Below are positions 1,276 to 64,000 of a stretch of DNA of 64,000 nucleotides, one piece after another. Source of the stretch: an uncultured Lachnospiraceae bacterium (GTDB taxonomy: Bacteria; Bacillota; Clostridia; Oscillospirales; CAG-272). The translations under genes and the position numbers were made by a program. The stretch lies in contig CAZFTE010000004.1 in assembly GCA_964521785.1 (NCBI GenBank), positions 9,724 through 73,723 on the forward strand, in the 5' to 3' direction. The notes under the pieces were generated by a model, which did not search any database, was not told the origin of the DNA, and saw nothing but the letters and a program-made list of their open reading frames with translations. The number at the start of each line of letters is the position of its first letter. Within the stretch, counting starts at the first letter, position 1.

Positions 1276-3378
1276 ATGAAAAATGTACCAGAAATTTTCG
1301 GAAGCCTTGTTTTCAACGACGCGGTGATGAAATCGCGACTTCCCAAGGAAACTTATCGCTTGCTTCGCCGAACGATGGCGGAGGGCAAACACCTTGACCT
1401 TTCTGTGGCTAATATAGTTGCAAATGCCATGAAAGATTGGGCAACGGAAAACGGAGCCACACATTTTACGCACTGGTTCCAGCCTATGACGGGTATTACG
1501 GCGGAGAAGCACGACAGCTTTATCTCTCCCTCCGAAGACGGCAGAGTTATCATGGAATTTTCCGGTAAGGAACTTGTTCACGGCGAGACAGACGCGTCGA
1601 GCTTTCCTTCCTGCGGTCTGCGTTCCACATTTGAAGCGCGCGGATACACCGCTTGGGACCCTACTTCATATGCTTTTATAAAAGACGGTACGCTCTGCAT
1701 ACCCACGGCGTTCTGTTCATACGGCGGAGAAGCACTTGACAAAAAAACGCCCTTGCTCCGTTCTATGGAAGCCATAAACAGCAGAGCTTCAAGAATACTT
1801 AAACTTTTTGGTCATGACGAATCTGTCCGTGTTACAACGACTGTCGGACCCGAGCAGGAATATTTTCTCATCGACAAAACAGTATACGATCGTCGCCCTG
1901 ACCTTATCTATTGCGGCAGAACGCTTTTTGGCGAGAAGCCTCCCAAGGGTCAGGAACTCGATGACCATTACTTCGGTTCCATAAAGCCTCGCGTTGCCGC
2001 GTTCATGAAAGAGCTTGACGAAGAACTTTGGAAGCTCGGTGTGCTTGCTAAAACAAAGCATAACGAGGGCGCTCCCGCACAGCACGAGCTTGCTCCCATC
2101 TTTACGACGACGAACATCGCTTGCGACCACAACCAACTCACGATGGAGCTTATGAAGAACATCGCAAAGAAGCATGGTCTTGTTTGCTTGCTCCATGAAA
2201 AGCCTTTTGCGGGTGTAAACGGAAGCGGTAAACATAATAACTGGTCCATCTCTACGAATACGGGCATCAACTTGCTCGACCCCGGTGAAACACCCCAGGA
2301 TAACGCGCAGTTCATTCTCTTCCTTTGCGCCGTTATCAAAGCCGTTGACGATTATCAGGATATGCTCCGAGTTTCCGTTGCGACAGCAGGAAACGACCAC
2401 CGTTTGGGCGCTTCCGAAGCTCCCCCTGCCGTTGTTTCCATCTTCTTGGGAGACGAATTGACGGCTATACTCGATTCTATCGAGAATGATACGGTATACG
2501 ATGCCAAAGAGCAGGTGCTTATGCGTATCGGTGTTCATGTGCTTCCCAAATTCCCCAAAGATACGACGGACAGAAACAGAACATCGCCTTTGGCATTCAC
2601 GGGTAATAAGTTTGAGTTCCGTATGCCCGGTTCTTCTCTCGCTGTTGCGAGCGTAAACGTAGTTCTCAACTCCGCGGTAGCAAAGGTATTGGAAGAGTTT
2701 GCCGATGAGCTTGAAGCCGCAGACGATTTCCAGACAACGCTCCACGATATCATCGTTAAGACTATCAGAGATCATAAGAGAATAATCTTTAACGGCAACG
2801 GTTACGATGACGCTTGGATAAAAGAAGCAACGGAAGTTCGCGGTCTTTCCAACTATAAGACGACTCCCGAAGCGCTCGTTCATTATACAGATAAAAAGAA
2901 TGTTGAGCTTTTCTCGTCCATGAAAGTATTCTCAGAAGCGGAGATAAAATCCCGCGCGGATATACGCATGGAAAATTACTGCAACGTTATGAAGATAGAA
3001 GCTTTGACGATGATAGAGATGGCGGAAAAACAGTTCATTCCCGCCATGTCGAAATATTCCAAATTGCTTGCTGAGACGATCGTCTCCAAGACTTCCGTTG
3101 GCATCGCTTGCATTGATTGCACATTTGAAAAGACTACGCTTGAAAGACTTTCTACACTTACAGGCGAAGCTTACAAGCAGGTGTCCGAGCTTAGAGCGAA
3201 AGTTGATACATTTCTCAAGATAAAGGAAGATTACAGAAAAGCGGCGTTCTTCATCAAAGATGAGATAATTCCTTGTATGAATGCTTTGCGCGCGGCTGTT
3301 GATGAAGCGGAAACCATCTGCGCTTCCGAATATTGGCCCGTGCCTACATACGGCGAGATACTCTTCAGCGTAAGATGA
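1276..3378 (+). CDS. glnA: glutamine synthetase, type III
   Basis: The 700-aa length and the N-terminus ([30 protein letters not shown]...[19 protein letters not shown]) are typical of GSIII. SD TAGGAG lies upstream. Confidence 0.92.
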
Positions 3379-3389
3379 CATAGAATAAA

Positions 3390-3427
3390 AAAATCGGCGG
3401 AAAGATGCTTCTTTCAGCCGATTTTTT
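3390..3427 (+). terminator. rho-independent terminator after glnA
   Basis: ATCGGC...GCCGAT outer stem with GAAAG/CTTTC inner pairs, then TTTTTTG. Confidence 0.7.
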
Positions 3428-3508
3428 GTTGCAAAGTAAACGGATATTGCTCGGTATCTTTTCTTGATCCGCATCATATATATTTATCAAAAACGAAATG
3501 GGCGAGAT

Positions 3509-3976
3509 ATGAAAAAGACGATATTCAAGATATTTATCTTATGTTTGCTTTTTTGCGCGGTGGCGCTGTTGCCGTCTTGCGCAGAAGAAAAAAGCACGCT
3601 TTCGATTATCGACGATGTATCGAAAAATTTTCCGTTCAAATACGGCGCCATATATTCCGACGAGCTATCCGAGAAAGACTCATTTTATCTGACGACGGAT
3701 ATGAAGAAGAAAATATTCGGCGATAACGCGGAAAAATATACGTATATAGTTTCGGTCAGCGTATATCTTTCTCGCGATATGGTCAGCGGCTCCGAAGTGA
3801 TAGCGATAAGTCTTGATGACAGATCTCACAGGGCAGAGATAACATCGTTGCTCTATCGCAGGGCATCGATGAAGCTTGACACGATATCGCGCGTATTTTG
3901 CGATGGAGACTATGTATTTTTCGTTTGCGACAACCGCGCGAACGAGATAATTCAATATATAAAGTCGAAAATATGA
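3509..3976 (+). CDS. small lipoprotein (possibly DUF4358-like)
   Basis: Start moved to the ATG at 3509. Signal peptide MKKTIFKIFILCLLFCAVALLPSC has a lipobox (LPSC). The family assignment is only a resemblance. Confidence 0.65.
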   Translation: MKKTIFKIFILCLLFCAVALLPSCAEEKSTLSIIDDVSKNFPFKYGAIYSDELSEKDSFYLTTDMKKKIFGDNAEKYTYIVSVSVYLSRDMVSGSEVIAISLDDRSHRAEITSLLYRRASMKLDTISRVFCDGDYVFFVCDNRANEIIQYIKSKI

Positions 3977-5875: not shown

Positions 5876-6406
5876 TCATTTCAAAGCGCTGTTACCGTTT
5901 GAATCTATTCCTACAATAAGAGGAAAATCAACTACCTGCATACGTCTTACCGCTTCGCAACCCAATTCGGGGAAGGCGATTATATCGACGCTTTTGATGG
6001 CTTTGGAGGCAATGGCGCCTGCACCGCCTACCGCGCAGAGGTAAAGACCGTTGTTGCGCTTTATGGCATCTATAACGGCTTCGTTTCTGCCGCCTTTGCC
6101 GATCGTTACGGCAAGACCTTTGTCGTAGAGAGTGGGGGCGAAGCCGTCCATTCTGGAAGAGGTCGTGGGACCGCAAGAGCCGATAGGTCTGCCTTCGGGA
6201 GCGGGCGTGGGACCTGCATAATATATAACTGCGTCTTTGAGTTCGAAAGGCGGTTCTTTTCCGTCTGCGAGCAAGGCGCAGATGCGCTTATGAGCCGCAT
6301 CTCGTGCAGTATATACTGTACCTGAAAGCAAAATGCTGTCGCCTGCGCGAAGCGTTTTTGCGGTTTCTCTTATATCATCGGTATGTACTCTTATCGTATC
6401 AGACAT
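5876..6406 (-). CDS. Fe-S hydro-lyase beta subunit (class I fumarate hydratase / tartrate dehydratase beta type)
   Basis: 176 aa. LLSGTVYTARDAAHKR, AVIYYAGPTPAPEGRPIGSCGPTTSSRMD and LCAVGGAGA match the FumA/TtdB C-terminal domain family. Confidence 0.88.
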   Translation of the reverse strand: MSDTIRVHTDDIRETAKTLRAGDSILLSGTVYTARDAAHKRICALLADGKEPPFELKDAVIYYAGPTPAPEGRPIGSCGPTTSSRMDGFAPTLYDKGLAVTIGKGGRNEAVIDAIKRNNGLYLCAVGGAGAIASKAIKSVDIIAFPELGCEAVRRMQVVDFPLIVGIDSNGNSALK

Positions 6407-6427
6407 GATTTGATCCTTCTTTTCGGC

Positions 6428-7891
6428 TTATGTATTATCTGCGGCTGTTTCGACAACAGATGCTTCGGCAGTTGTTTCAGCTGTTGTTTCAACTGCTGTT
6501 TCGGTTGTTGCTTCTACCGCAACTTCTGATGTTTCTTCTTCGGTCTTTGTTGTTTTTCTCTTTCTTGTCGTTTTGGGTTTGGCAACTTCCACCGTTTCGC
6601 CGTCAGCCGTTACTTCTGTTTCTGCTGTTTTTCTTTTTCTCGTTGTCTTTTTGGGAGTTTCTTCACCCTCAACAGCTTCTGCGCCTTCTTCGGCAACTTT
6701 CTTCTTTGTTGCTCTCGGCTTCTTTGCGGTAGCTGTCTCTACTGTTGCCAAACGAGTCTTGAGTTCTTCTGTGCCTTTGAGAAGGTTATCGACACCCTCA
6801 CGCATTTCAGCTGTGAATACAGCGAAATCTCCGTCATTCTGTACCGTGGAAACTGTTGTTTCGTTTGCTTTTTTGGTTGCGGCTTCGAGTATCTCGTTCA
6901 TTTTTGAATTGAATTCATCGTAAGCGGCGTTCTTTTCTTTTATCATTTCTGCGCGAGCTTTCGCGTCGTTTGCTTCCGCAATAGCTTTAGCAAGTTCAGC
7001 TTCTTTAACTTCGAAAGCTTTAGCAAGTTCAACTTCTTTAACTTCGAAAGCTTTGGCGAGTTCAACTTCTTTAGCTTCGAAAGCTTTAGCGAGTTCAGCT
7101 TCTTTAGCCTCGTAAACTTTAGCAAGCTCAGATTCTTTAGCCTCGTAAACTTTAGCAAGCTCAGATTCTTTAGCCTCATAAGCTTTAGCGAGTTCAGCTT
7201 CTTTTGTTTCGTAGGATCTTACGAGCGAGTTTTCTTTGTTCTGTGCTTTAGCGGAGAGATCTTTTTCGCGTCTTGAAAGTTTGTCTGCAAATTCTTTTTC
7301 GATTGCAGCTCTTGCCTTTGCAACATCTGCTTCTTTAGCCGCGTTGGATTCGCTTAATGCGGCAACCTTGGATTCGAGCTTTTCGATCTCTTTTTTGTTT
7401 GCCATCATTTTGGAATTGAAATCTTTTTCAGTCCAAATAAGTTTGGCACTGAGTTCTTTTTCTCTGGAGAAGTTTCTCTCTCTTGCTTCAGCCAAAGCTT
7501 TTTCGGCAGCGGCAACCTTTGCGTTGGCGTTCTGTACAGCCGTGTCTTTATCGAGGACTTCAACTTCCAAAGCGTGTGCGCGTGTTTTTGCGTCTTCAAA
7601 CTGTTTTTTTGCTTCTTCCGTTTCGGAATTTGCTTTGGCGAGTTCGGCTTCTTTAGCGTAAAGCGACTGGGTAACACCGTATACTTCGATAGCTATCTGG
7701 TCTGCTTTCTGGTTTGCGATCTCAAGCTCTGCCATAGCGTCGTTCTTTTCGCGTTCAGCTTTCGCAACACGTGCTTCCGCCTCCTCGATAGATTTTTTTG
7801 CGCCTTCCGCAACAGAAGCGATATATTCATTTACATCGTTTTTGTTATAGCCACGGAAAACTTCTCTGAATACTTTTGCGTTCTCAGCCAT
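6428..7891 (-). CDS. DivIVA-domain coiled-coil protein with internal 11-aa repeats and a basic/acidic tail
   Basis: The N-terminal FREVFRGYNKNDVNEYI matches the DivIVA signature (F..FRGY...V..FL). A long coiled coil follows. The C-terminus has two TTRKRKT motifs and an ETTAETTAE tail. SD GGAGGA. Confidence 0.8.
   Translation of the reverse strand: MAENAKVFREVFRGYNKNDVNEYIASVAEGAKKSIEEAEARVAKAEREKNDAMAELEIANQKADQIAIEVYGVTQSLYAKEAELAKANSETEEAKKQFEDAKTRAHALEVEVLDKDTAVQNANAKVAAAEKALAEARERNFSREKELSAKLIWTEKDFNSKMMANKKEIEKLESKVAALSESNAAKEADVAKARAAIEKEFADKLSRREKDLSAKAQNKENSLVRSYETKEAELAKAYEAKESELAKVYEAKESELAKVYEAKEAELAKAFEAKEVELAKAFEVKEVELAKAFEVKEAELAKAIAEANDAKARAEMIKEKNAAYDEFNSKMNEILEAATKKANETTVSTVQNDGDFAVFTAEMREGVDNLLKGTEELKTRLATVETATAKKPRATKKKVAEEGAEAVEGEETPKKTTRKRKTAETEVTADGETVEVAKPKTTRKRKTTKTEEETSEVAVEATTETAVETTAETTAEASVVETAADNT
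6983..7213. repeat. seven tandem 33-bp repeats inside the DivIVA-domain gene
   Basis: Units begin at 6983, 7016, 7049, 7082, 7115, 7148 and 7181. They encode (Y/F)E(A/V)KE(A/S/V)ELAKA. Units 5 and 6 differ by 1 nt. Confidence 0.9.
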
Positions 7892-8145
7892 TTGTTATAT
7901 TTCCTCCGTCGTTGATTACATATTATATCATTCTATATTATTCTATAATTTTATCACAAAAAGTAAATTTTTGCAATAATATTTATCGATTTCCGCAATA
8001 AATATCTCTAAAAAATCAAAAAATCTTTCCTTAGACGGTCGAATGGCATACGCTTTTGCGTATCGTTGCGAAAAAATGTATTTACTTTTTGGGATCTTCC
8101 GATTATAATTATATTATAAAATAAAGATCAACGGAGAAAAAAGAA

Positions 8146-9279
8146 ATGGCAGAAGAGATATACGGTACGCAAGAGATCTGGTCTGTATTGCGTGAGGAGG
8201 CGAAGCCCATCGTGCTTTACGGTATGGGCAACGGCGCGGATAAGATAATATCCGTGTTGGAAAGCAAGGGCATGGAGTTTGCTGATGTCTTTGCTTCGGA
8301 CGATTTTGTGCGTGGTCAGCTTTTTCACGGCAAAAAAGTATTGCGACTTTCCGAAGTGGAAGAAAAATATGACGATTTTAATATACTCGTTTCATTCGGT
8401 TCGTCGCTTCCCGATGTTATGGATAAGATAAAGAGCATTGCAGAGCGACACACGCTCTATGCGCCCGACGTGCCTGTTGCGGGCGAGAACCTTTTCGATG
8501 CGGAATTTTTTCATCACAACGAAATTAAGATATTGGCGGCGCGTGAGCTTTTGGCGGACGAACGCTCCAAAAACGTTTACGATGAGCTTATCCGCTATAA
8601 GCTTGACGGCAAGATAACTCATTTTGAAAATACGGACAGAGAGGGAACTCTCTTTGCTCCGTCGCCGCTTTCCGGCGGCTACGAGGTGTATTGCGACCTC
8701 GGTGCATACAACGGAGACACTGTAAAAGAAGCGTTGACGGTGTTTCCCGAAATAGCGAAGATAATTGCGTTTGAACCTTCGCCAAAAACGTTTATGAAGC
8801 TCCAAAACAACACGGCGCAATATGAAGATAAAGATATTACGTTCGTGAATGCTTGCGCGTGGAACGAGGACGGTGCCGCTTGCTTTACCGACGGAAGCGG
8901 CAGAAATTCAACGCTCATCGGCGCGAACGCTCAAAATGTCAAAACTCTTTCGGGGGCAAAAACGAAAGAGATAGCGACAGCCGCTCCCGATACATATTTG
9001 AATTTCAGCGGCAAGCCTTTGCTTATCAAATTCGATGTGGAGGGCGCTGAACGCGAAGCCATCGAAGGAAGCAGAAATGCCATCATACACAATTTGACGG
9101 AGCTTTGCGTTTCGCTCTATCACAGAAGCGAGGATATTTTCGAGCTTCCTTTGCTCATACATGATATATTGCCCGATCATAAACTTTTTATAGAAAAAAC
9201 GCCGTATATTCCCGCTTGGGAGATAAATCTTTACGCTTGCGTTAGACAAAGCCCAAAAATTCTCGGTATTCGAGAGTGA
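8146..9279 (+). CDS. FkbM-family SAM-dependent methyltransferase
   Basis: 377 aa. YCDLGAYNGDTVKEAL...IIAFEPSPKTFMKLQNN...LLIKFDVEGAEREAIEG matches the FkbM methyltransferase pattern. Confidence 0.8.
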   Translation: MAEEIYGTQEIWSVLREEAKPIVLYGMGNGADKIISVLESKGMEFADVFASDDFVRGQLFHGKKVLRLSEVEEKYDDFNILVSFGSSLPDVMDKIKSIAERHTLYAPDVPVAGENLFDAEFFHHNEIKILAARELLADERSKNVYDELIRYKLDGKITHFENTDREGTLFAPSPLSGGYEVYCDLGAYNGDTVKEALTVFPEIAKIIAFEPSPKTFMKLQNNTAQYEDKDITFVNACAWNEDGAACFTDGSGRNSTLIGANAQNVKTLSGAKTKEIATAAPDTYLNFSGKPLLIKFDVEGAEREAIEGSRNAIIHNLTELCVSLYHRSEDIFELPLLIHDILPDHKLFIEKTPYIPAWEINLYACVRQSPKILGIRE

Positions 9280-58965: not shown

Positions 58966-59433
58966 ATGGACTGGCTATTGGATCTATTCACAAATCCCTA
59001 TTTGATAACTGCACTTTCATCTTGGGCTGTGGCACAGGTCGTGAAGACCGTGATACATCTCATAATGAACAAAAAATTGGATATCAATCGTCTTTTCGGC
59101 GATGGCGGTATGCCGAGCGGTCATTCCGCCACGGTCGTGTCGCTCGCCGTTATAACCGCGCTCATAAACGGCACGGGCAGCGCCATATTTGCGCTCTCCG
59201 CCGTATTCGCGATAATCGTTTGCCATGATGCGAAAGGCGTTCGCCGCGAAACAGGTAAACAGGCGATCATTCTCAACGATCTTATAGAGCTTCTCAGTTT
59301 GCCTATGAAAGACGTCAAACAACGAGATATCAAGCTCAAAGAATTTGTCGGGCATACGCCCGTGCAAGTCGTTGTCGGCGCTATGGTCGGCGCCGCAAAT
59401 GCGATCTTAATGTACAACATCTTTTTCAAATAA
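58966..59433 (+). CDS. divergent PAP2 / DUF212 family membrane protein
   Basis: 155 aa. GGMPSGHSATV and HTPVQV motifs are typical of the acid phosphatase/vanadium-haloperoxidase-related family. Confidence 0.8.
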   Translation: MDWLLDLFTNPYLITALSSWAVAQVVKTVIHLIMNKKLDINRLFGDGGMPSGHSATVVSLAVITALINGTGSAIFALSAVFAIIVCHDAKGVRRETGKQAIILNDLIELLSLPMKDVKQRDIKLKEFVGHTPVQVVVGAMVGAANAILMYNIFFK

Positions 59434-59440
59434 TAATAGA

Positions 59441-59476
59441 AAACAACGGATATCGAGCAATATCCGTTGTTTTTTC
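59441..59476 (+). terminator. rho-independent terminator
   Basis: AAACAACGGATA-TCGAGCAA-TATCCGTTGTTT followed by TTTTC. Confidence 0.85.
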
Positions 59477-59587
59477 TTATTTGTAAATAATTGTTTTTCT
59501 ATGCTTGACTAAACAAGGAATATGTGATATAATGAACGCGATATAGGGTATCGGTATTATGATTTATTGACGATGAGGTGATTATAC

Positions 59588-60052
59588 ATGGCGGAAAAAG
59601 ACAAAAAATACGCGGCGCAAAATCGCAAAGCGCGCCATGATTACTTTGTGGAGGAGACTTACGAGGCGGGAATAGTTCTTTCCGGAACGGAAGTTAAATC
59701 CATACGCGCAGGCACTGTCAATATGAAAGATTCCTACTGCTATATCGAGCAAGGAGAGCTTTTTGCAACGGGTATACACATAAGTCCTTATGAAAAGGGC
59801 AATATATTCAATGTGGATCCTATGCGCGACAGAAAGCTCCTTATGCATAAGAAAGAGATATTGAAGCTCTTTATGAAGGTCGGCAAGGAGGGTTATACTC
59901 TCGTTCCGCTTTCGATGTATTTTTCGGGAAAGAACGTAAAAGTCGAAGTCGGCGTCTGCAAAGGTAAAAAGCTTTGGGACAAGCGTGAGACAGCGGCTCT
60001 TAAAGCCGAGAAGCGCGATATAGACCGCTACGAACGCGAAAGATATAAATGA
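59588..60052 (+). CDS. smpB: SsrA-binding protein
   Basis: 154 aa. QNRKARHDY...GTEVKSIR...NISPYE...[10 protein letters not shown]. Confidence 0.95.
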
Positions 60053-60093
60053 TCTTTAAAAAATATTGCAATGTCCGAGACATTGCTCCACAT

Positions 60094-60447
60094 GGGGGCG
60101 TAATGGTTTCGACGGGGATCTTGCAGTATGGTAAGCGAGCCGAGATGTGGCAACTCGTTAAACAACCTCAAACTTAAAATTAAACGCTAACAATAATAAA
60201 GTAGCTCTCGCTGCCTAAGTGCGGCGATGTCCGCCCGATGAGTACCGCGACTTCGGCTCGGGCATAACACAGCGGTGAACGCGCACAGCCATTTTGCTTT
60301 TGAAGCTGTCGTGTATAAAAAAGCTACTCTCTTTTTCAGCCTGTTTATCGGCGGTCAAAGAGGGGAAATCCAATAGATAAACTTTGCTCGAAGAAAGCTA
60401 TATGAATAGGTTTTCGGACAGGGGTTCGATTCCCCTCGCCTCCACCA
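60094..60447 (+). ncRNA. ssrA: tmRNA (SsrA)
   Basis: 5' GGGGGCGTAATGGTTTCGACGGGG. 3' GGACAGGGGTTCGATTCCCCTCGCCTCCACCA with the G3:U wobble in the acceptor stem. The tag frame 60186-60218 is GCT AAC AAT AAT AAA GTA GCT CTC GCT GCC TAA (ANNNKVALAA). It lies directly downstream of smpB. Confidence 0.92.
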
Positions 60448-60567
60448 GCAGGCAGTGCCTGCACCCAATTATGTTTGAGTGCAGTGCCATGCCAAACCTA
60501 ATACCAAGATGGTGCGGTTCGGATATAGCTCCTACTGCTCCAACAACGGCAAGCTGCTTTGCCATAG

Positions 60568-60600
60568 AACGCCTTGCTTTTGCATGGCGTTTTATTTTTT
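60568..60600 (+). terminator. intrinsic terminator about 120 nt after the tmRNA CCA end
   Basis: AACGCCTTGC-TTTT-GCATGGCGTT (one mismatch) followed by TTATTTTTTG. Only 26 nt separate it from the next ATG. Confidence 0.7.
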
Positions 60601-60626
60601 GTTTTCGAAAAAAGAAAGGAGATTCC

Positions 60627-61703
60627 ATGATAATCACAAGAGAAATGGGTACGGTATTGCCAGACACTACTATGTCTTCCCCAGTATATCTTGACGTTAA
60701 AAACGCTCCGTTTAAGCTCTATGGATTCAGCGAGCCTTTTCGCCGCGTTCCCACGGAAGTCGCGGAAGCAACGAGCGAAGGCGTAAAGATCCTTGCAAAG
60801 ATGTCCTCCGGCGGCAGAGTTCGTTTCCGCACGAACTCGAATTTTATCGTGATACACGGAGACTATGTTACTTCGGGAGCCATAAACACGAGCGCCTTTG
60901 TGGCAACGAGCAGTTTTGATATGTTCTTCTATGAAGGAAACGGCGAACACGCTTTCCGCGGCATATTCAATCCTTCTCAGGGCGGCGGAAGATCGTATGT
61001 GGAGAGCCGCATAAAATTCGTGGATAACGAGATGAAAGATATCATACTCTATTTCCCGCTGAGAGCCGATCTTAAAAATGTTTATATCGGTCTTTGTGAG
61101 GGATGCGAGATAAGTGAGGGAAGCGAATACACATATTCAGATCCCGTTGTCTTCTATGGTTCTTCTATCGTTCACGGCGAGGGACTGTTGCGCTCCAGCT
61201 CCTCTTATCCCGCGGTGCTTTCGCGCCGCTTGGATTGCGATTTCGTAAACCTCGGATTCAGCGGTTGCGCTCGCGCCGAAAAAGCCATGATGGAATATAT
61301 CGCGGGACTTGACATGAGCGTGTTCGTGTACGATTATGATTACAACGCCGATTCTTACGACTATCTTGAAAAAACTCATTACGAGGGTTATAAGATATTC
61401 CGCGAAAAGCACCCGAATACTCCCGTAATATTTGCTTCTCGCCCTAATTATTGGACGAGAAATTATGCTTTTGAAAATTATTCTTTGAGCTGGGTCGAGA
61501 AGCGCCGCAAACTTATAGAATCCAACTATGAGCGCGCCAAAGCCGAGGGAGACGAAAACGTGTATTTCGTTGATGGTTCAAAAATGTTCCCCGAAGGCTT
61601 GCGCGATGATTGCACGATGGATGGTTGCCACCCGAACGATCTCGGATATTATTTCATGGCAAATGCATTCGAAGAAGTGCTTCGTCCACTTTTGAAAAAA
61701 TAA
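60627..61703 (+). CDS. SGNH/GDSL-type hydrolase paralogue 1 (GxDLY-like N-domain plus esterase domain)
   Basis: The true start is ATG 60627 (AAGGAG SD); the track ORF 60384.. reads through the tmRNA. VVFYGSSIVHG (block I), YDYDYN (block III), MDGCHPND (block V DxxH). No signal peptide. Confidence 0.8.
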   Translation: MIITREMGTVLPDTTMSSPVYLDVKNAPFKLYGFSEPFRRVPTEVAEATSEGVKILAKMSSGGRVRFRTNSNFIVIHGDYVTSGAINTSAFVATSSFDMFFYEGNGEHAFRGIFNPSQGGGRSYVESRIKFVDNEMKDIILYFPLRADLKNVYIGLCEGCEISEGSEYTYSDPVVFYGSSIVHGEGLLRSSSSYPAVLSRRLDCDFVNLGFSGCARAEKAMMEYIAGLDMSVFVYDYDYNADSYDYLEKTHYEGYKIFREKHPNTPVIFASRPNYWTRNYAFENYSLSWVEKRRKLIESNYERAKAEGDENVYFVDGSKMFPEGLRDDCTMDGCHPNDLGYYFMANAFEEVLRPLLKK

Positions 61704-61721
61704 ATTTTGTGAGGTTAGATC

Positions 61722-62777
61722 ATGATAGTAACAAGAGAAATGGGTACGGTATTGCCCGATACGACGATGACATCGCCCGTATACCTCGATGTAAAGAACA
61801 GTCCGTTTAAACTTTACGGTTTTTGCGAACCTTTCCGTCGCGTTCCCGTTGACGTTGCGGAAGCATCGAGCGAAAGAGTCGCATTGCTTGCAGGTAACTC
61901 CGCAGGCGGCAGAGTTCGCTTTAAGACTGACTCCGATTTTATAGTTATCCACGGCGATCATTATTACACAGAGACCGGCAATTTGGTGCCTTATGTTGAG
62001 ATCGCGGGATTCGATGTCTTTTTCACCGAAAACGGCAAGCAGAAATATAAAGGCGTTTTCATCGGTTCGCAAGGTCCGAATAAGACATATATCGAAAGCA
62101 GACTTCGTTATGACAACGAAATGAAAGAAGTAACTATTTACTTCCCGATAAGCACATCGTTCAGCAATGTTTATATCGGACTTCGCGAAGGTTGCCATAT
62201 CGAAGAGGCAGATCCCTATACATATGAAACTCCTGTTGTTTTCTATGGTTCTTCCATAGTTCACGGTATCGGCGCTATACGTCCCAGCTCCGCATACCCC
62301 GCTACGATCTCTCGCCGTTTGGATACGAACTTTGTAAACCTCGGCTTCGGTAGCGGCGCCTGCGCCGAAAAAGCGATAATGGAATATATCTCGGGACTTG
62401 AAATGAGCGTATTCGTTTACGATTACGACCACAACACCCCCTCTTACGAGCATCTCGAACAGACGCATTATGCGGGCTATAAGATATTCCGCGAAAAGCA
62501 GCCCGACATTCCTGTTATATTCGCTTCGCGAGTTGACTACTACCACGGCAATGTGGAGATGAACGAAAAGACACGCTCGCTCATCAAAGCCAACTATAAG
62601 CGAGCAAAAGCGGAGGGCGACAAGAACGTATACTTTATTGACGGTTCTAAGATATATCCCGATGATATCGTTTTGCGCGATGAATGTTCGATGGAGGGTT
62701 GCCACCCGAACGACCTCGGATATTATTTGATGGCAAACACATTCGGAGAAATAATCAGCCCCCTTTTGAAAAAATAA
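61722..62777 (+). CDS. SGNH/GDSL-type hydrolase paralogue 2
   Basis: 351 aa with the same architecture. VVFYGSSIVHG, YDYDHN, MEGCHPND (Glu in place of the block V Asp). An 18-nt spacer with a GTGAGG SD. Confidence 0.8.
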   Translation: MIVTREMGTVLPDTTMTSPVYLDVKNSPFKLYGFCEPFRRVPVDVAEASSERVALLAGNSAGGRVRFKTDSDFIVIHGDHYYTETGNLVPYVEIAGFDVFFTENGKQKYKGVFIGSQGPNKTYIESRLRYDNEMKEVTIYFPISTSFSNVYIGLREGCHIEEADPYTYETPVVFYGSSIVHGIGAIRPSSAYPATISRRLDTNFVNLGFGSGACAEKAIMEYISGLEMSVFVYDYDHNTPSYEHLEQTHYAGYKIFREKQPDIPVIFASRVDYYHGNVEMNEKTRSLIKANYKRAKAEGDKNVYFIDGSKIYPDDIVLRDECSMEGCHPNDLGYYLMANTFGEIISPLLKK

Positions 62778-62796
62778 AGATTTGTGAGGATAGATC

Positions 62797-63870
62797 ATGA
62801 TAGTAACAAGAGAAATGGGTACAGTATTGCCCGATACGACGATGACATCGCCCGTATACCTCGATGTAAAAAACAGCCCCTTTAAGCTTTACGGCTTTTG
62901 CGAACCGTTCCGCCGTCTTCCCGTTGACGTTGCCGAAGCAACGGGCGGAAGCATTACGGTAAGCGCAGGCAATTCCGCGGGCGGCAGAATACGCTTTAAG
63001 ACCAATTCGGATTTTATCGTGGTTCATGGCGATCATTACTATACGGAAAAAAATAATCACACGATGAGCTTCGTTACCGCAAGGGGCTTTGATATATATG
63101 TTACCGAAAACGGAAAACAGCAGTTCTGTGGTATTTTCCATGGCTCTCAGCCCGATGAAAAATCATACACGGAAAGCAGACTTCGCTTCGCTGGAAAAAT
63201 GAATGAATTTACTATCTATTTTCCCATTACGACATCGTTCGAAAACGTTTATATCGGACTTCGCGAAGGAAGCGAGATAGAGCCGGCAGATGATTATAAG
63301 TATGAAAAGCAGATCGTTTTTTACGGTTCTTCTATCGTTCACGGTGCTGTTGCTTCGCGCCCATCACTTGTATATACTTCCGTACTTTCGCGCAGACTTG
63401 ATTCCAACTTTATAAATCTTGGCTTTGGCGGTGCCGCAAAAGCAGAAAGATCCATTATGGAATACATCGCGGGACTTGATATGAGCATATTCGTTTACGA
63501 CTATGACCACAATGCTCCCACGCCTGAATATTTGGCACAGACACATTACGCGGGCTATAAGACCGTTCGCGAGAAACACCCCGATACACCGATAATTTTC
63601 GCTTCTCGCTCTAATTATTGGACTCGCAACTACATTTTTGAAACGACCACGCTCGAAGAATCCGAGGAACGTCGTTCGATTATCGAGGAAAATTACAAAC
63701 GCGCCGTAGCGGAAGGAGATAAAAACGTATACTTTGTTGACGGCTCGAAGATGTACCCCGAGGATATGAGGGGAGATTGCACTGTAGATGGTTGCCATCC
63801 CAATGATATTGGTTGTCAATATATGGCGGATGCATTCGAAAAAGTCATTCGTCCTATTTTGGAAAAATAA
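62797..63870 (+). CDS. SGNH/GDSL-type hydrolase paralogue 3
   Basis: 357 aa. IVFYGSSIVHG, YDYDHN, VDGCHPND. A 19-nt spacer with a GTGAGG SD. Confidence 0.8.
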   Translation: MIVTREMGTVLPDTTMTSPVYLDVKNSPFKLYGFCEPFRRLPVDVAEATGGSITVSAGNSAGGRIRFKTNSDFIVVHGDHYYTEKNNHTMSFVTARGFDIYVTENGKQQFCGIFHGSQPDEKSYTESRLRFAGKMNEFTIYFPITTSFENVYIGLREGSEIEPADDYKYEKQIVFYGSSIVHGAVASRPSLVYTSVLSRRLDSNFINLGFGGAAKAERSIMEYIAGLDMSIFVYDYDHNAPTPEYLAQTHYAGYKTVREKHPDTPIIFASRSNYWTRNYIFETTTLEESEERRSIIEENYKRAVAEGDKNVYFVDGSKMYPEDMRGDCTVDGCHPNDIGCQYMADAFEKVIRPILEK

Positions 63871-63888
63871 ATTTTGTGAGGATTTATC

Positions 63889-64000
63889 ATGATAGTAACA
63901 AGAGAAATGGGTACAGTATTGCCCGACACAACAATGTCTTCTCCCGTTTATTTGGATGTGAGAAAAGAACCTTTCAGACTTTGTGGTTTCAGCGAACCCT
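63889..64000 (+). CDS. SGNH/GDSL-type hydrolase paralogue 4 (5' part, truncated by window end)
   Basis: MIVTREMGTVLPDTTMSSPVYLDVRKEPFRLCGFSEP... has the same conserved N-terminus, an 18-nt spacer and a GTGAGG SD. Confidence 0.7.
   Translation, partial: MIVTREMGTVLPDTTMSSPVYLDVRKEPFRLCGFSEP

Follow-up and report, generated by a model that had tools for sequence, protein, structure and literature searches.

Four tandem GxDLY-SGNH hydrolase genes behind ssrA: a probable lineage-specific expansion at a core locus of uncultured gut Clostridia

Described relatives and architecture of the array proteins

The closest solved structure to the proteins discussed here is BACOVA_00914 of Bacteroides ovatus (PDB 4LHS), a structural-genomics entry named 'putative GDSL-like lipase' that combines the domains GxDLY (PF14607) and Lipase_GDSL_3 (PF14606). 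According to a review, PF14606 contains no characterised member (PMC9487903), and a literature search on GxDLY, PF14606, PF14607, 4LHS and BACOVA_00914 retrieved no functional study. Four tandem genes for proteins with the same two-domain architecture, g1 to g4, lie behind the transfer-messenger RNA (tmRNA) gene ssrA at the end of the window, which comprises the 64,000 nucleotides (nt) analysed from an uncultured Lachnospiraceae bacterium (NCBI GenBank assembly GCA_964521785.1, contig CAZFTE010000004.1, positions 9,724 to 73,723 of the forward strand). With a probability of roughly 75%, this array goes back to a core chromosomal gene for a cytoplasmic GxDLY-SGNH serine hydrolase that was expanded in tandem in a lineage-specific manner. 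The gene stands immediately 5' of greA in a group of uncultured gut Clostridia, in which the species have one, two, three or, in the window, four copies, and the copies in the window represent the old types A, C', a divergent B-like type, and C. In the following list, L001 is a related locus from an NCBI metagenome-assembled genome that carries three copies (a, b and c).

60627-61703, plus strand: g1, 358 amino acids (aa), type A paralogue, 90% identical to its orthologue, L001 copy a
61722-62777, plus strand: g2, 351 aa, type C' paralogue with Glu as the triad acid; its identity is 80% with g4 and 79% with L001 copy c
62797-63870, plus strand: g3, 357 aa, the paralogue that has diverged furthest; no comparison with another copy gives more than 67% identity, and L001 copy b gives 65%
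63889 to beyond 64000, plus strand: g4, first 37 codons in the window; full protein P0010, 351 aa, type C, 83% identical to its orthologue, L001 copy c

The products of g1, g2 and g3 score 62.9, 61.6 and 69.8 bits against PF14607 and 124.6, 104.8 and 149.7 bits against PF14606, well above the gathering threshold of 27 bits in both families. No family was assigned to them in an NCBIfam search, and a Pfam scan at E ≤ 1 gave no match to CE2_N, the N-terminal domain of carbohydrate esterase family 2 (CE2). The GxDLY motif reads GFDIY in g3, GFDVF in g2 and SFDMF in g1, where Ser replaces Gly, and aligns to GLDLY of 4LHS. FYGSSIVHG, DYDxN and (D/E)GCHPND are found in all copies, and the SGNH blocks are represented by YGSSIVHG (I), NLGFGG (II), DYDHN (III) and DGCHPND (V). 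The closest solved structures by sequence are 4LHS (E 3.7e-38) and SsfX3 (PDB 3SKV; E 1.4e-06). An AlphaFold2 model of g3, built on an input alignment of 70 sequences, reached a mean predicted local distance difference test (pLDDT) score of 94.3 and a predicted template modelling score (pTM) of 0.93. Foldseek comparison of this model with the PDB yielded 57 matches at E ≤ 0.001, many of them solved SGNH esterases. Template modelling (TM) scores were 0.83/0.87 for 4LHS, 0.76 for SsfX3 and about 0.6 for the CE2 esterases 2WAB, 2WAO and 2WAA, after which many single-domain SGNH acetyl-esterases follow in rank. Residues 1-50 of the model are an ordered portion of the fold (pLDDT 94-98), and the N-terminus MIVTREMGTVLPDTTMTSPVY has no hydrophobic core of a signal peptide when read by eye, no dedicated predictor having been applied. 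Pfam profiles, PDB sequence matches and the structural model agree in placing the proteins within the SGNH fold, as two-domain hydrolases with a GxDLY beta-sandwich and a C-terminal SGNH domain that are predicted to be cytoplasmic. In these points they bear out the original prediction, which had been made from the sequence alone.

Among the best 120 homologues (identity to g3 at least 51%), the Ser-Ser pair of block I (Ser178/179), Gly209 of block II, Asn239 of block III and His334 of block V are invariant, and Asp331 of the DxxH motif in block V is present in 119. The sole exception is g2, in which Glu had already been noticed in place of the triad Asp. This substitution could mean that some copies, notably g2, are catalytically dead and persist as binding proteins or decaying duplicates. 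However, Glu is a conservative replacement that can still act as the triad acid, and CE2 esterases work via a Ser-His dyad. Moreover, no copy has lost Ser, Gly, Asn or His, the open reading frames (ORFs) are intact, and in the gene bodies nonsynonymous divergence (pN 0.23-0.26) lies far below synonymous divergence (pS 0.66-0.77), which argues for continuing purifying selection. A loss of catalysis is thus distinctly unlikely. All copies retain the catalytic set Ser/Gly/Asn/Asp-His, with Glu as the acid in g2.

The likeness to 4LHS extends to 30% sequence identity and to aligned GxDLY, GSSI, N and DGxH blocks. However, this protein is from another phylum and uncharacterised, and the alignment starts only at query residue 57, so that the N-terminal arm of the array proteins has no match by sequence. 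SsfX3, a GDSL-family salicylyl-acyltransferase of SF2575 tetracycline biosynthesis, likewise consists of a beta-sandwich followed by an SGNH-like domain. As it is the only functionally characterised protein similar over both domains (Foldseek E 1.6e-21), the array might be thought to encode secondary-metabolite acyltransferases instead of carbohydrate esterases. Identity to SsfX3 is only 16-17%, however, and while SsfX3 belongs to a polyketide gene cluster, no biosynthetic genes were found in the contexts examined around the array and its relatives. The closest structure is the Bacteroides protein, and the same architecture is found in CE2 carbohydrate esterases. An acyltransferase function like that of SsfX3 is therefore very unlikely.

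In the CE2 esterases CtCE2 (2WAB/2WAO) and CjCE2 (2WAA), an N-terminal jelly-roll likewise precedes a C-terminal SGNH domain, and both domains superpose on the g3 model. The predicted beta-sandwich of the array proteins, which resembles a carbohydrate-binding module (CBM), would be packed on the catalytic domain as in CE2. CE2 esterases differ from the array proteins in sequence (11-14% identity), in the CE2_N domain, and in that the catalytic Asp is nearly invariant in the array family. They are a plausible functional analogue, acting in the deacetylation of oligo- or polysaccharides. RiCE2 and RiCE17 of Roseburia intestinalis (PDB 6HFZ/6HH9) are intracellular SGNH esterases of a gut Firmicute, whose catalytic domains match the array proteins at E ~2e-6 and which have complementary positional specificities on acetylated mannans. 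Such sharing out of one substrate may serve as a model for the retention of diverged paralogues. In RiCE17, however, the CBM35-like domain is C-terminal, and the RiCE genes belong to a mannan-utilisation locus, whereas the array is not set in a carbohydrate-utilisation context. Since the catalytic residues are kept in all copies while loops diverge, the paralogues are probably active esterases that differ in substrate or positional specificity. By analogy with the enzymes above, we infer that their substrates are acylated, probably O-acetylated carbohydrates that the cell has imported. The neighbourhood of the homologues points to no conserved partner: 131 neighbouring ORFs from 80 metagenome loci matched 126 different Pfam families, none of which occurred more than three to four times.

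Copy number, paralogue history and the greA-linked locus

The ORFs and spacers agree with the proposed four head-to-tail plus-strand genes of 351-358 aa at distances of 18-19 nt, the spacers measuring 18, 19 and 18 nt. All three contain TTTGTGAGG, 7-8 nt 5' of the ATG, as expected from the predicted common Shine-Dalgarno sequence. The start of the array, which had been put at 60606, moves to the ATG of g1 at 60627, where the ribosome-binding motif is AAAGGAG and not TTTGTGAGG.

60617-60621, plus strand: Shine-Dalgarno sequence AGGAG of g1, 5 nt 5' of the ATG, read directly from the sequence

A scan of the window detected no family members besides g1-g4. The source contig has 78,050 nt (NCBI) and also encodes P0010 and exact copies of g3 (P0001), g2 (P0003) and g1 (P0124). 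Because the 37 residues of g4 in the window match the N-terminus of P0010 exactly, and both are from the same contig, g4 is a complete gene. Neither the best 120 homologues nor the clusters with the A, B and C copies of the closest relatives contained a source-contig member beyond g1-g4. A fifth copy in the array is improbable on these comparisons, and the total would be four.

The paralogues share amino-acid identities of 0.65 (g1-g2), 0.62 (g1-g3), 0.67 (g2-g3) and 0.80 (g2-g4), and the values among g1-g3 lie within the 60-70% estimated earlier by eye for the gene bodies. Divergence is greatest in alignment columns 76-135, which cover loops of the beta-sandwich (36-55% aa identity), and in columns 271-300, where a catalytic-domain loop contains an indel of 7 residues (43-60%). 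The catalytic blocks are unchanged. This partition into constant parts (N-terminal arm and catalytic blocks) and free parts (sandwich loops and indel loop) could guide work on the substrate specificity of esterases from gut Clostridia. In phylogenetic trees the copies cluster by type across genomes, and g2 appears as an older duplicate of the C type. The array order is A-C'-B'-C in the window versus A-B-C in L001 and in L009, a contig from ENA. The sorting by type across species supports the view, already part of the original prediction, that the duplications are old.

Scanning of species-representative genomes revealed eight loci with close relatives of the array. L001 and L009 are 88% identical to the window at the nucleotide level across 6.4 kb of upstream flank, and their gene order is amino-acid ABC transporter, DUF212, smpB, ssrA, three tandem copies and greA. 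In L001, gpsA and fhs follow 3' of greA on the opposite strand. Altogether, greA lies directly 3' of the SGNH gene or genes in ten loci (L001, L002, L003, L009, L010, L021, L028, L029, L030 and L038), which contain one, two or three copies and whose SGNH proteins are down to 50% identical to g3. On the 5' side the neighbours differ between loci: ssrA is found in the window, a two-component system in L028 and L029, and in L021 tRNA genes are located further up, while the two-copy arrays of L002 and L003 are preceded by an L15-like gene (168-171 aa) and a gene resembling glycoside hydrolase family 106 (GH106). Because the step from SGNH gene to greA is constant in the ten loci whereas the upstream neighbour is variable, the array is best explained as a core gene expanded in tandem from one copy to four. 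None of greA, gpsA and fhs is encoded in the window (1-64000), and greA is therefore expected just past g4. In L001 the only strong terminator of this unit is 3' of greA and none lies inside the array; array and greA probably form one transcription unit.

More distant homologues are single genes amid housekeeping genes, one of them between ybeY and era and another beside ffh. The former arrangement, seen at 8001-9065 of L014/L015 from another Clostridia lineage, is a phoH-ybeY-[SGNH]-era-recO cluster and again shows a core-genome context unrelated to carbohydrates. Two or more copies were present in 17 of 95 loci. A distant branch of the family, at about 40% identity, likewise contains copies arranged as tandem pairs (L048, L051, L056, L058, L061, L063, L065, L066, L081, L086 and L092), and tandem duplication thus recurs independently within the family. 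The array of the window documents such a step-wise expansion, through one, two, three and four copies, in an SGNH family without a characterised member. In L039 the longest ORF behind the SGNH gene (2396-3562, 389 aa) starts about 50 nt past it and has GreA/GreB domains only in residues 226-371. Either the ORF call is over-extended, or this may be a GreA whose N-terminus carries a long extension.

The position of the array behind ssrA allows a different origin to be considered, for which the following features on the 5' side are relevant.

59588-60052, plus strand: smpB, 5' of ssrA
60094-60447, plus strand: ssrA (tmRNA), tag peptide ANNNKVALAA, found by ARAGORN and by Rfam (RF00023, 185.8 bits)
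60448-60545, plus strand: about 98 nt inserted immediately behind the tmRNA 3' end, recognised by alignment, absent from L001 and L009
60564-60605, plus strand: intrinsic terminator of ssrA with a 13-bp hairpin at 60564-60595, core AACGCCTTGC-TTTT-GCATGGCGTT and a T run to 60605, conserved in L001 and L009

The gene ssrA is a classical integration site. The array begins only 179 nt past the tmRNA, and the window differs from its relatives by an insertion exactly at the tmRNA 3' end. The array could accordingly be the cargo or remnant of an element integrated at the 3' end of ssrA, and the original prediction had pointed to this gene as a hot spot of island insertion. However, the same succession of ssrA, array and greA occurs in L001 and L009, where no integrase is found between ssrA and greA and where the array ends at greA, with housekeeping genes beyond. 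A conserved array in relatives without an island boundary is what had been named beforehand as the mark of an ordinary core paralogue family. A search of the window, L001 and L009 with the last 80 nt of the tmRNA (blastn-short) gave no match outside the tmRNA gene and thus no attachment site (att) repeat. The array is also present where the 98-nt insertion is absent, and the insertion is dissimilar to the tmRNA. Composition is inconspicuous as well: GC content is 0.45-0.47 in the array versus 0.45 in the window, and GC content at third codon positions is similar to that of neighbouring genes. Finally, the SGNH family is linked to greA in loci without nearby ssrA. The island origin is thus largely refuted and extremely improbable; the position of the array beside ssrA is better read as a rearrangement that the window has in common with two related species. 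The locus also calls for caution, in that a location right behind ssrA is by itself no sign of a mobile island. The insertion is predicted to form two hairpins (60451-60493 and 60510-60542) and resembles neither the tmRNA nor any other sequence with which it was compared. A decayed copy of the tmRNA 3' end, which could have been an att remnant, was considered and rejected, the local alignment score being below the mean of shuffled sequences.

Several observations weigh against the expansion of a core esterase gene as outlined here. The sequence ends at 64000, and the evidence for greA 3' of g4 and for a count of four copies is indirect. With only 65% identity between g3 and the B copy of L001, any reconstruction of how the orders A-C'-B'-C and A-B-C arose is weak. 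No promoter was found for the array in the lineage of the window. The genomic context offers no consistent clue to a substrate, with only scattered matches to fucosidase, GH3 and AraC-type families besides the GH106-like gene next to two-copy arrays. With respect to function, no PF14606 member has a demonstrated activity (PMC9487903), and we infer both esterase activity and substrate. The expansion of a core gene nevertheless remains the preferred explanation: the array is an ordinary, if tidy, case of paralogues multiplying in tandem at a core locus, in an enzyme family that is known but uncharacterised, and the stakes are modest.

The GH106-like gene deserves brief description. It is located at 454-3528 in L002 and at 6080-9154 (minus strand) in L003 and codes for a 1024-aa protein with a weak match to Glyco_hydro_106 (alpha-L-rhamnosidase). 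The L15-like gene stands between it and the two-copy array. Among the close relatives this is the sole glycoside-hydrolase neighbour.

Conserved 5' ends of the paralogues

The first 30 codons of the genes encode peptides that are 90-100% identical within the window, compared with about 61-67% over the whole protein. At the nucleotide level, g2 and g3 are 94% identical in these codons and about 0.5-0.8 elsewhere. The conserved N-terminal peptide, MI(V/I)T(R/K)EMG..L.DTTM.SPVY(L/I)DV...P..L.GF.EPFRRVP, is also kept in the orthologues and in single-copy homologues of other species, and across the 120 homologues the majority fraction is 0.72 in residues 1-50 versus 0.68 in the rest of the protein. 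The original prediction had offered ongoing gene conversion at the 5' end, or selection on the RNA or on the N-terminal peptide, as explanations. These can be told apart by synonymous sites and by comparison between species, for which two stretches are of importance.

61706-61795, plus strand: shared tract on the g2 side, spacer TTTGTGAGG.TAGATC plus codons 1-25
62781-62870, plus strand: shared tract on the g3 side, spacer plus codons 1-25; here the trees of N-terminus and body conflict

Between g2 and g3, 73 of the 74 nt from the ATG are identical, the longest uninterrupted match being 47 nt, and the spacers are nearly identical too. Past nt 74 the agreement falls to 54 of 64 and then to 84 of 117 positions. 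Correspondingly, pS rises from 0.11 in codons 1-25 to 0.56 in codons 26-46 and 0.77 in the body, and the deficit in the first segment is significant (binomial P 4e-8 to 1e-4) on about 18 synonymous sites. A tree of residues 1-50 joins g2 and g3 as sisters, whereas they fall into different clades in the tree of the body. These data support a gene conversion or recombination tract of about 90 nt (spacer and nt 1-74) for the g2/g3 pair only, and one recent event of this kind may have homogenised their 5' ends.

Could the conserved 5' ends be due chiefly to ongoing conversion among all copies or to RNA-level selection? Besides the g2/g3 tract, such a mechanism could account for the identity of g3 and g4 over nt 1-38 and for the low pS of L001 copies b and c in codons 1-25 (0.35, versus 0.72 in the body). 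A further argument comes from codons 2-8 (ATA GTA ACA AGA GAA ATG GG), in which synonymous choice is kept across species, as seen at the start of g1 (60627-60650) and of the copies in L001-L008: in 16 copies from nine sources, ACA is found in 16/16 and AGA or AAA in 16/16. However, g1 compared with g2 or g3 has a pS of 0.74 in codons 1-25, which is saturated as in the gene bodies, at a pN of only 0.03. This combination indicates purifying selection on the N-terminal peptide. After codon 8, third positions vary freely between species while the peptide is retained, and the peptide is also conserved in single-copy homologues, which have no partner for conversion. The segment is moreover modelled with high confidence as a component of the fold. 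Conversion of all copies or RNA selection is thus unlikely as the main cause. The claim of 5' homogenisation holds for the spacer and nt 1-74 of g2/g3 and fails for g1, and selection on the peptide, which had been named as the alternative, becomes the general explanation. N-terminal conservation would mostly reflect constraint at the protein level, with purifying selection acting on the first 45-50 residues as a structural component of the fold. The pattern in codons 2-8 suggests an additional nucleotide-level constraint limited to the translation start region, and it fits the A-rich, weakly structured start that is usual for translation.

Transcription behind the tmRNA gene

In an Rfam scan of 59000-64000, the tmRNA was the only RNA found. 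A sub-threshold match to 'tmRNA_permuted' overlaps the real tmRNA and was treated as its echo. Between the insertion and the terminator, a small hairpin at 60548-60563 is common to the window, L001 and L009. The terminator had been missed by a consensus terminator scanner because of a mismatch in the stem. It is followed within about 21-31 nt by the Shine-Dalgarno sequence and ATG of g1. The distances given originally, 180 nt from the tmRNA end to the array and 26 nt from the terminator, are in substance confirmed.

No sigma-70-like site was detected between the ssrA terminator and the ATG of g1, either in the window or in L001. The puzzle of how the array is transcribed, raised in the original prediction, therefore stands, with a terminator that is conserved and no promoter-like site behind it. 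Relatives with a different upstream region have such sites: in L028 a terminator is followed by TTGACT-17-TATAAT (11/12 matches) 35 nt 5' of the ATG, and in L003 by TTGATA-17-TAATAT with a TG extension 37 nt 5' of the ATG. For the array of the window the options are read-through from ssrA or from a promoter-like site upstream of smpB at 59505-59533, a non-canonical promoter that overlaps the T tract, or internal promoters. In a more far-reaching scenario, which is doubtful as it stands, array and greA in this lineage would have lost the promoter that relatives such as L028 and L003 possess, and their expression would depend on transcripts reading through the ssrA terminator. The precursor of the tmRNA, a stable RNA with high expression, would then double as mRNA for four diverged esterases and a transcription elongation factor, and each of the four enzymes would have its own positional or sugar specificity on acetylated glycans. 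If true, this would provide a first functional handle on PF14606/PF14607. On a smaller scale, the promoter-less gap between terminator and array poses a question on how genes behind stable-RNA genes are expressed.

Promoter-like sequences TTGCCA-16-TATTAT (10/12 matches) are found at 61625-61652 and 62699-62726, about 70 nt 5' of the starts of g2 and g3, and also at 8390-8417 of L001, in the type A copy. As promoters they were set aside: they lie within the codons for GCHPNDLGYY, and such sites number 13 versus 7.9 +/- 2.9 in shuffled sequences, which is no clear excess. They may be coincidental or internal promoters. Of the candidate promoters 5' of ssrA and the array, the strongest is the near-consensus site at 59505-59533, which reads TTGACT-17-TATAAT (11/12 matches) with a TG extension. 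A bidirectional terminator-like hairpin lies further 5' of smpB, at 59438-59475.

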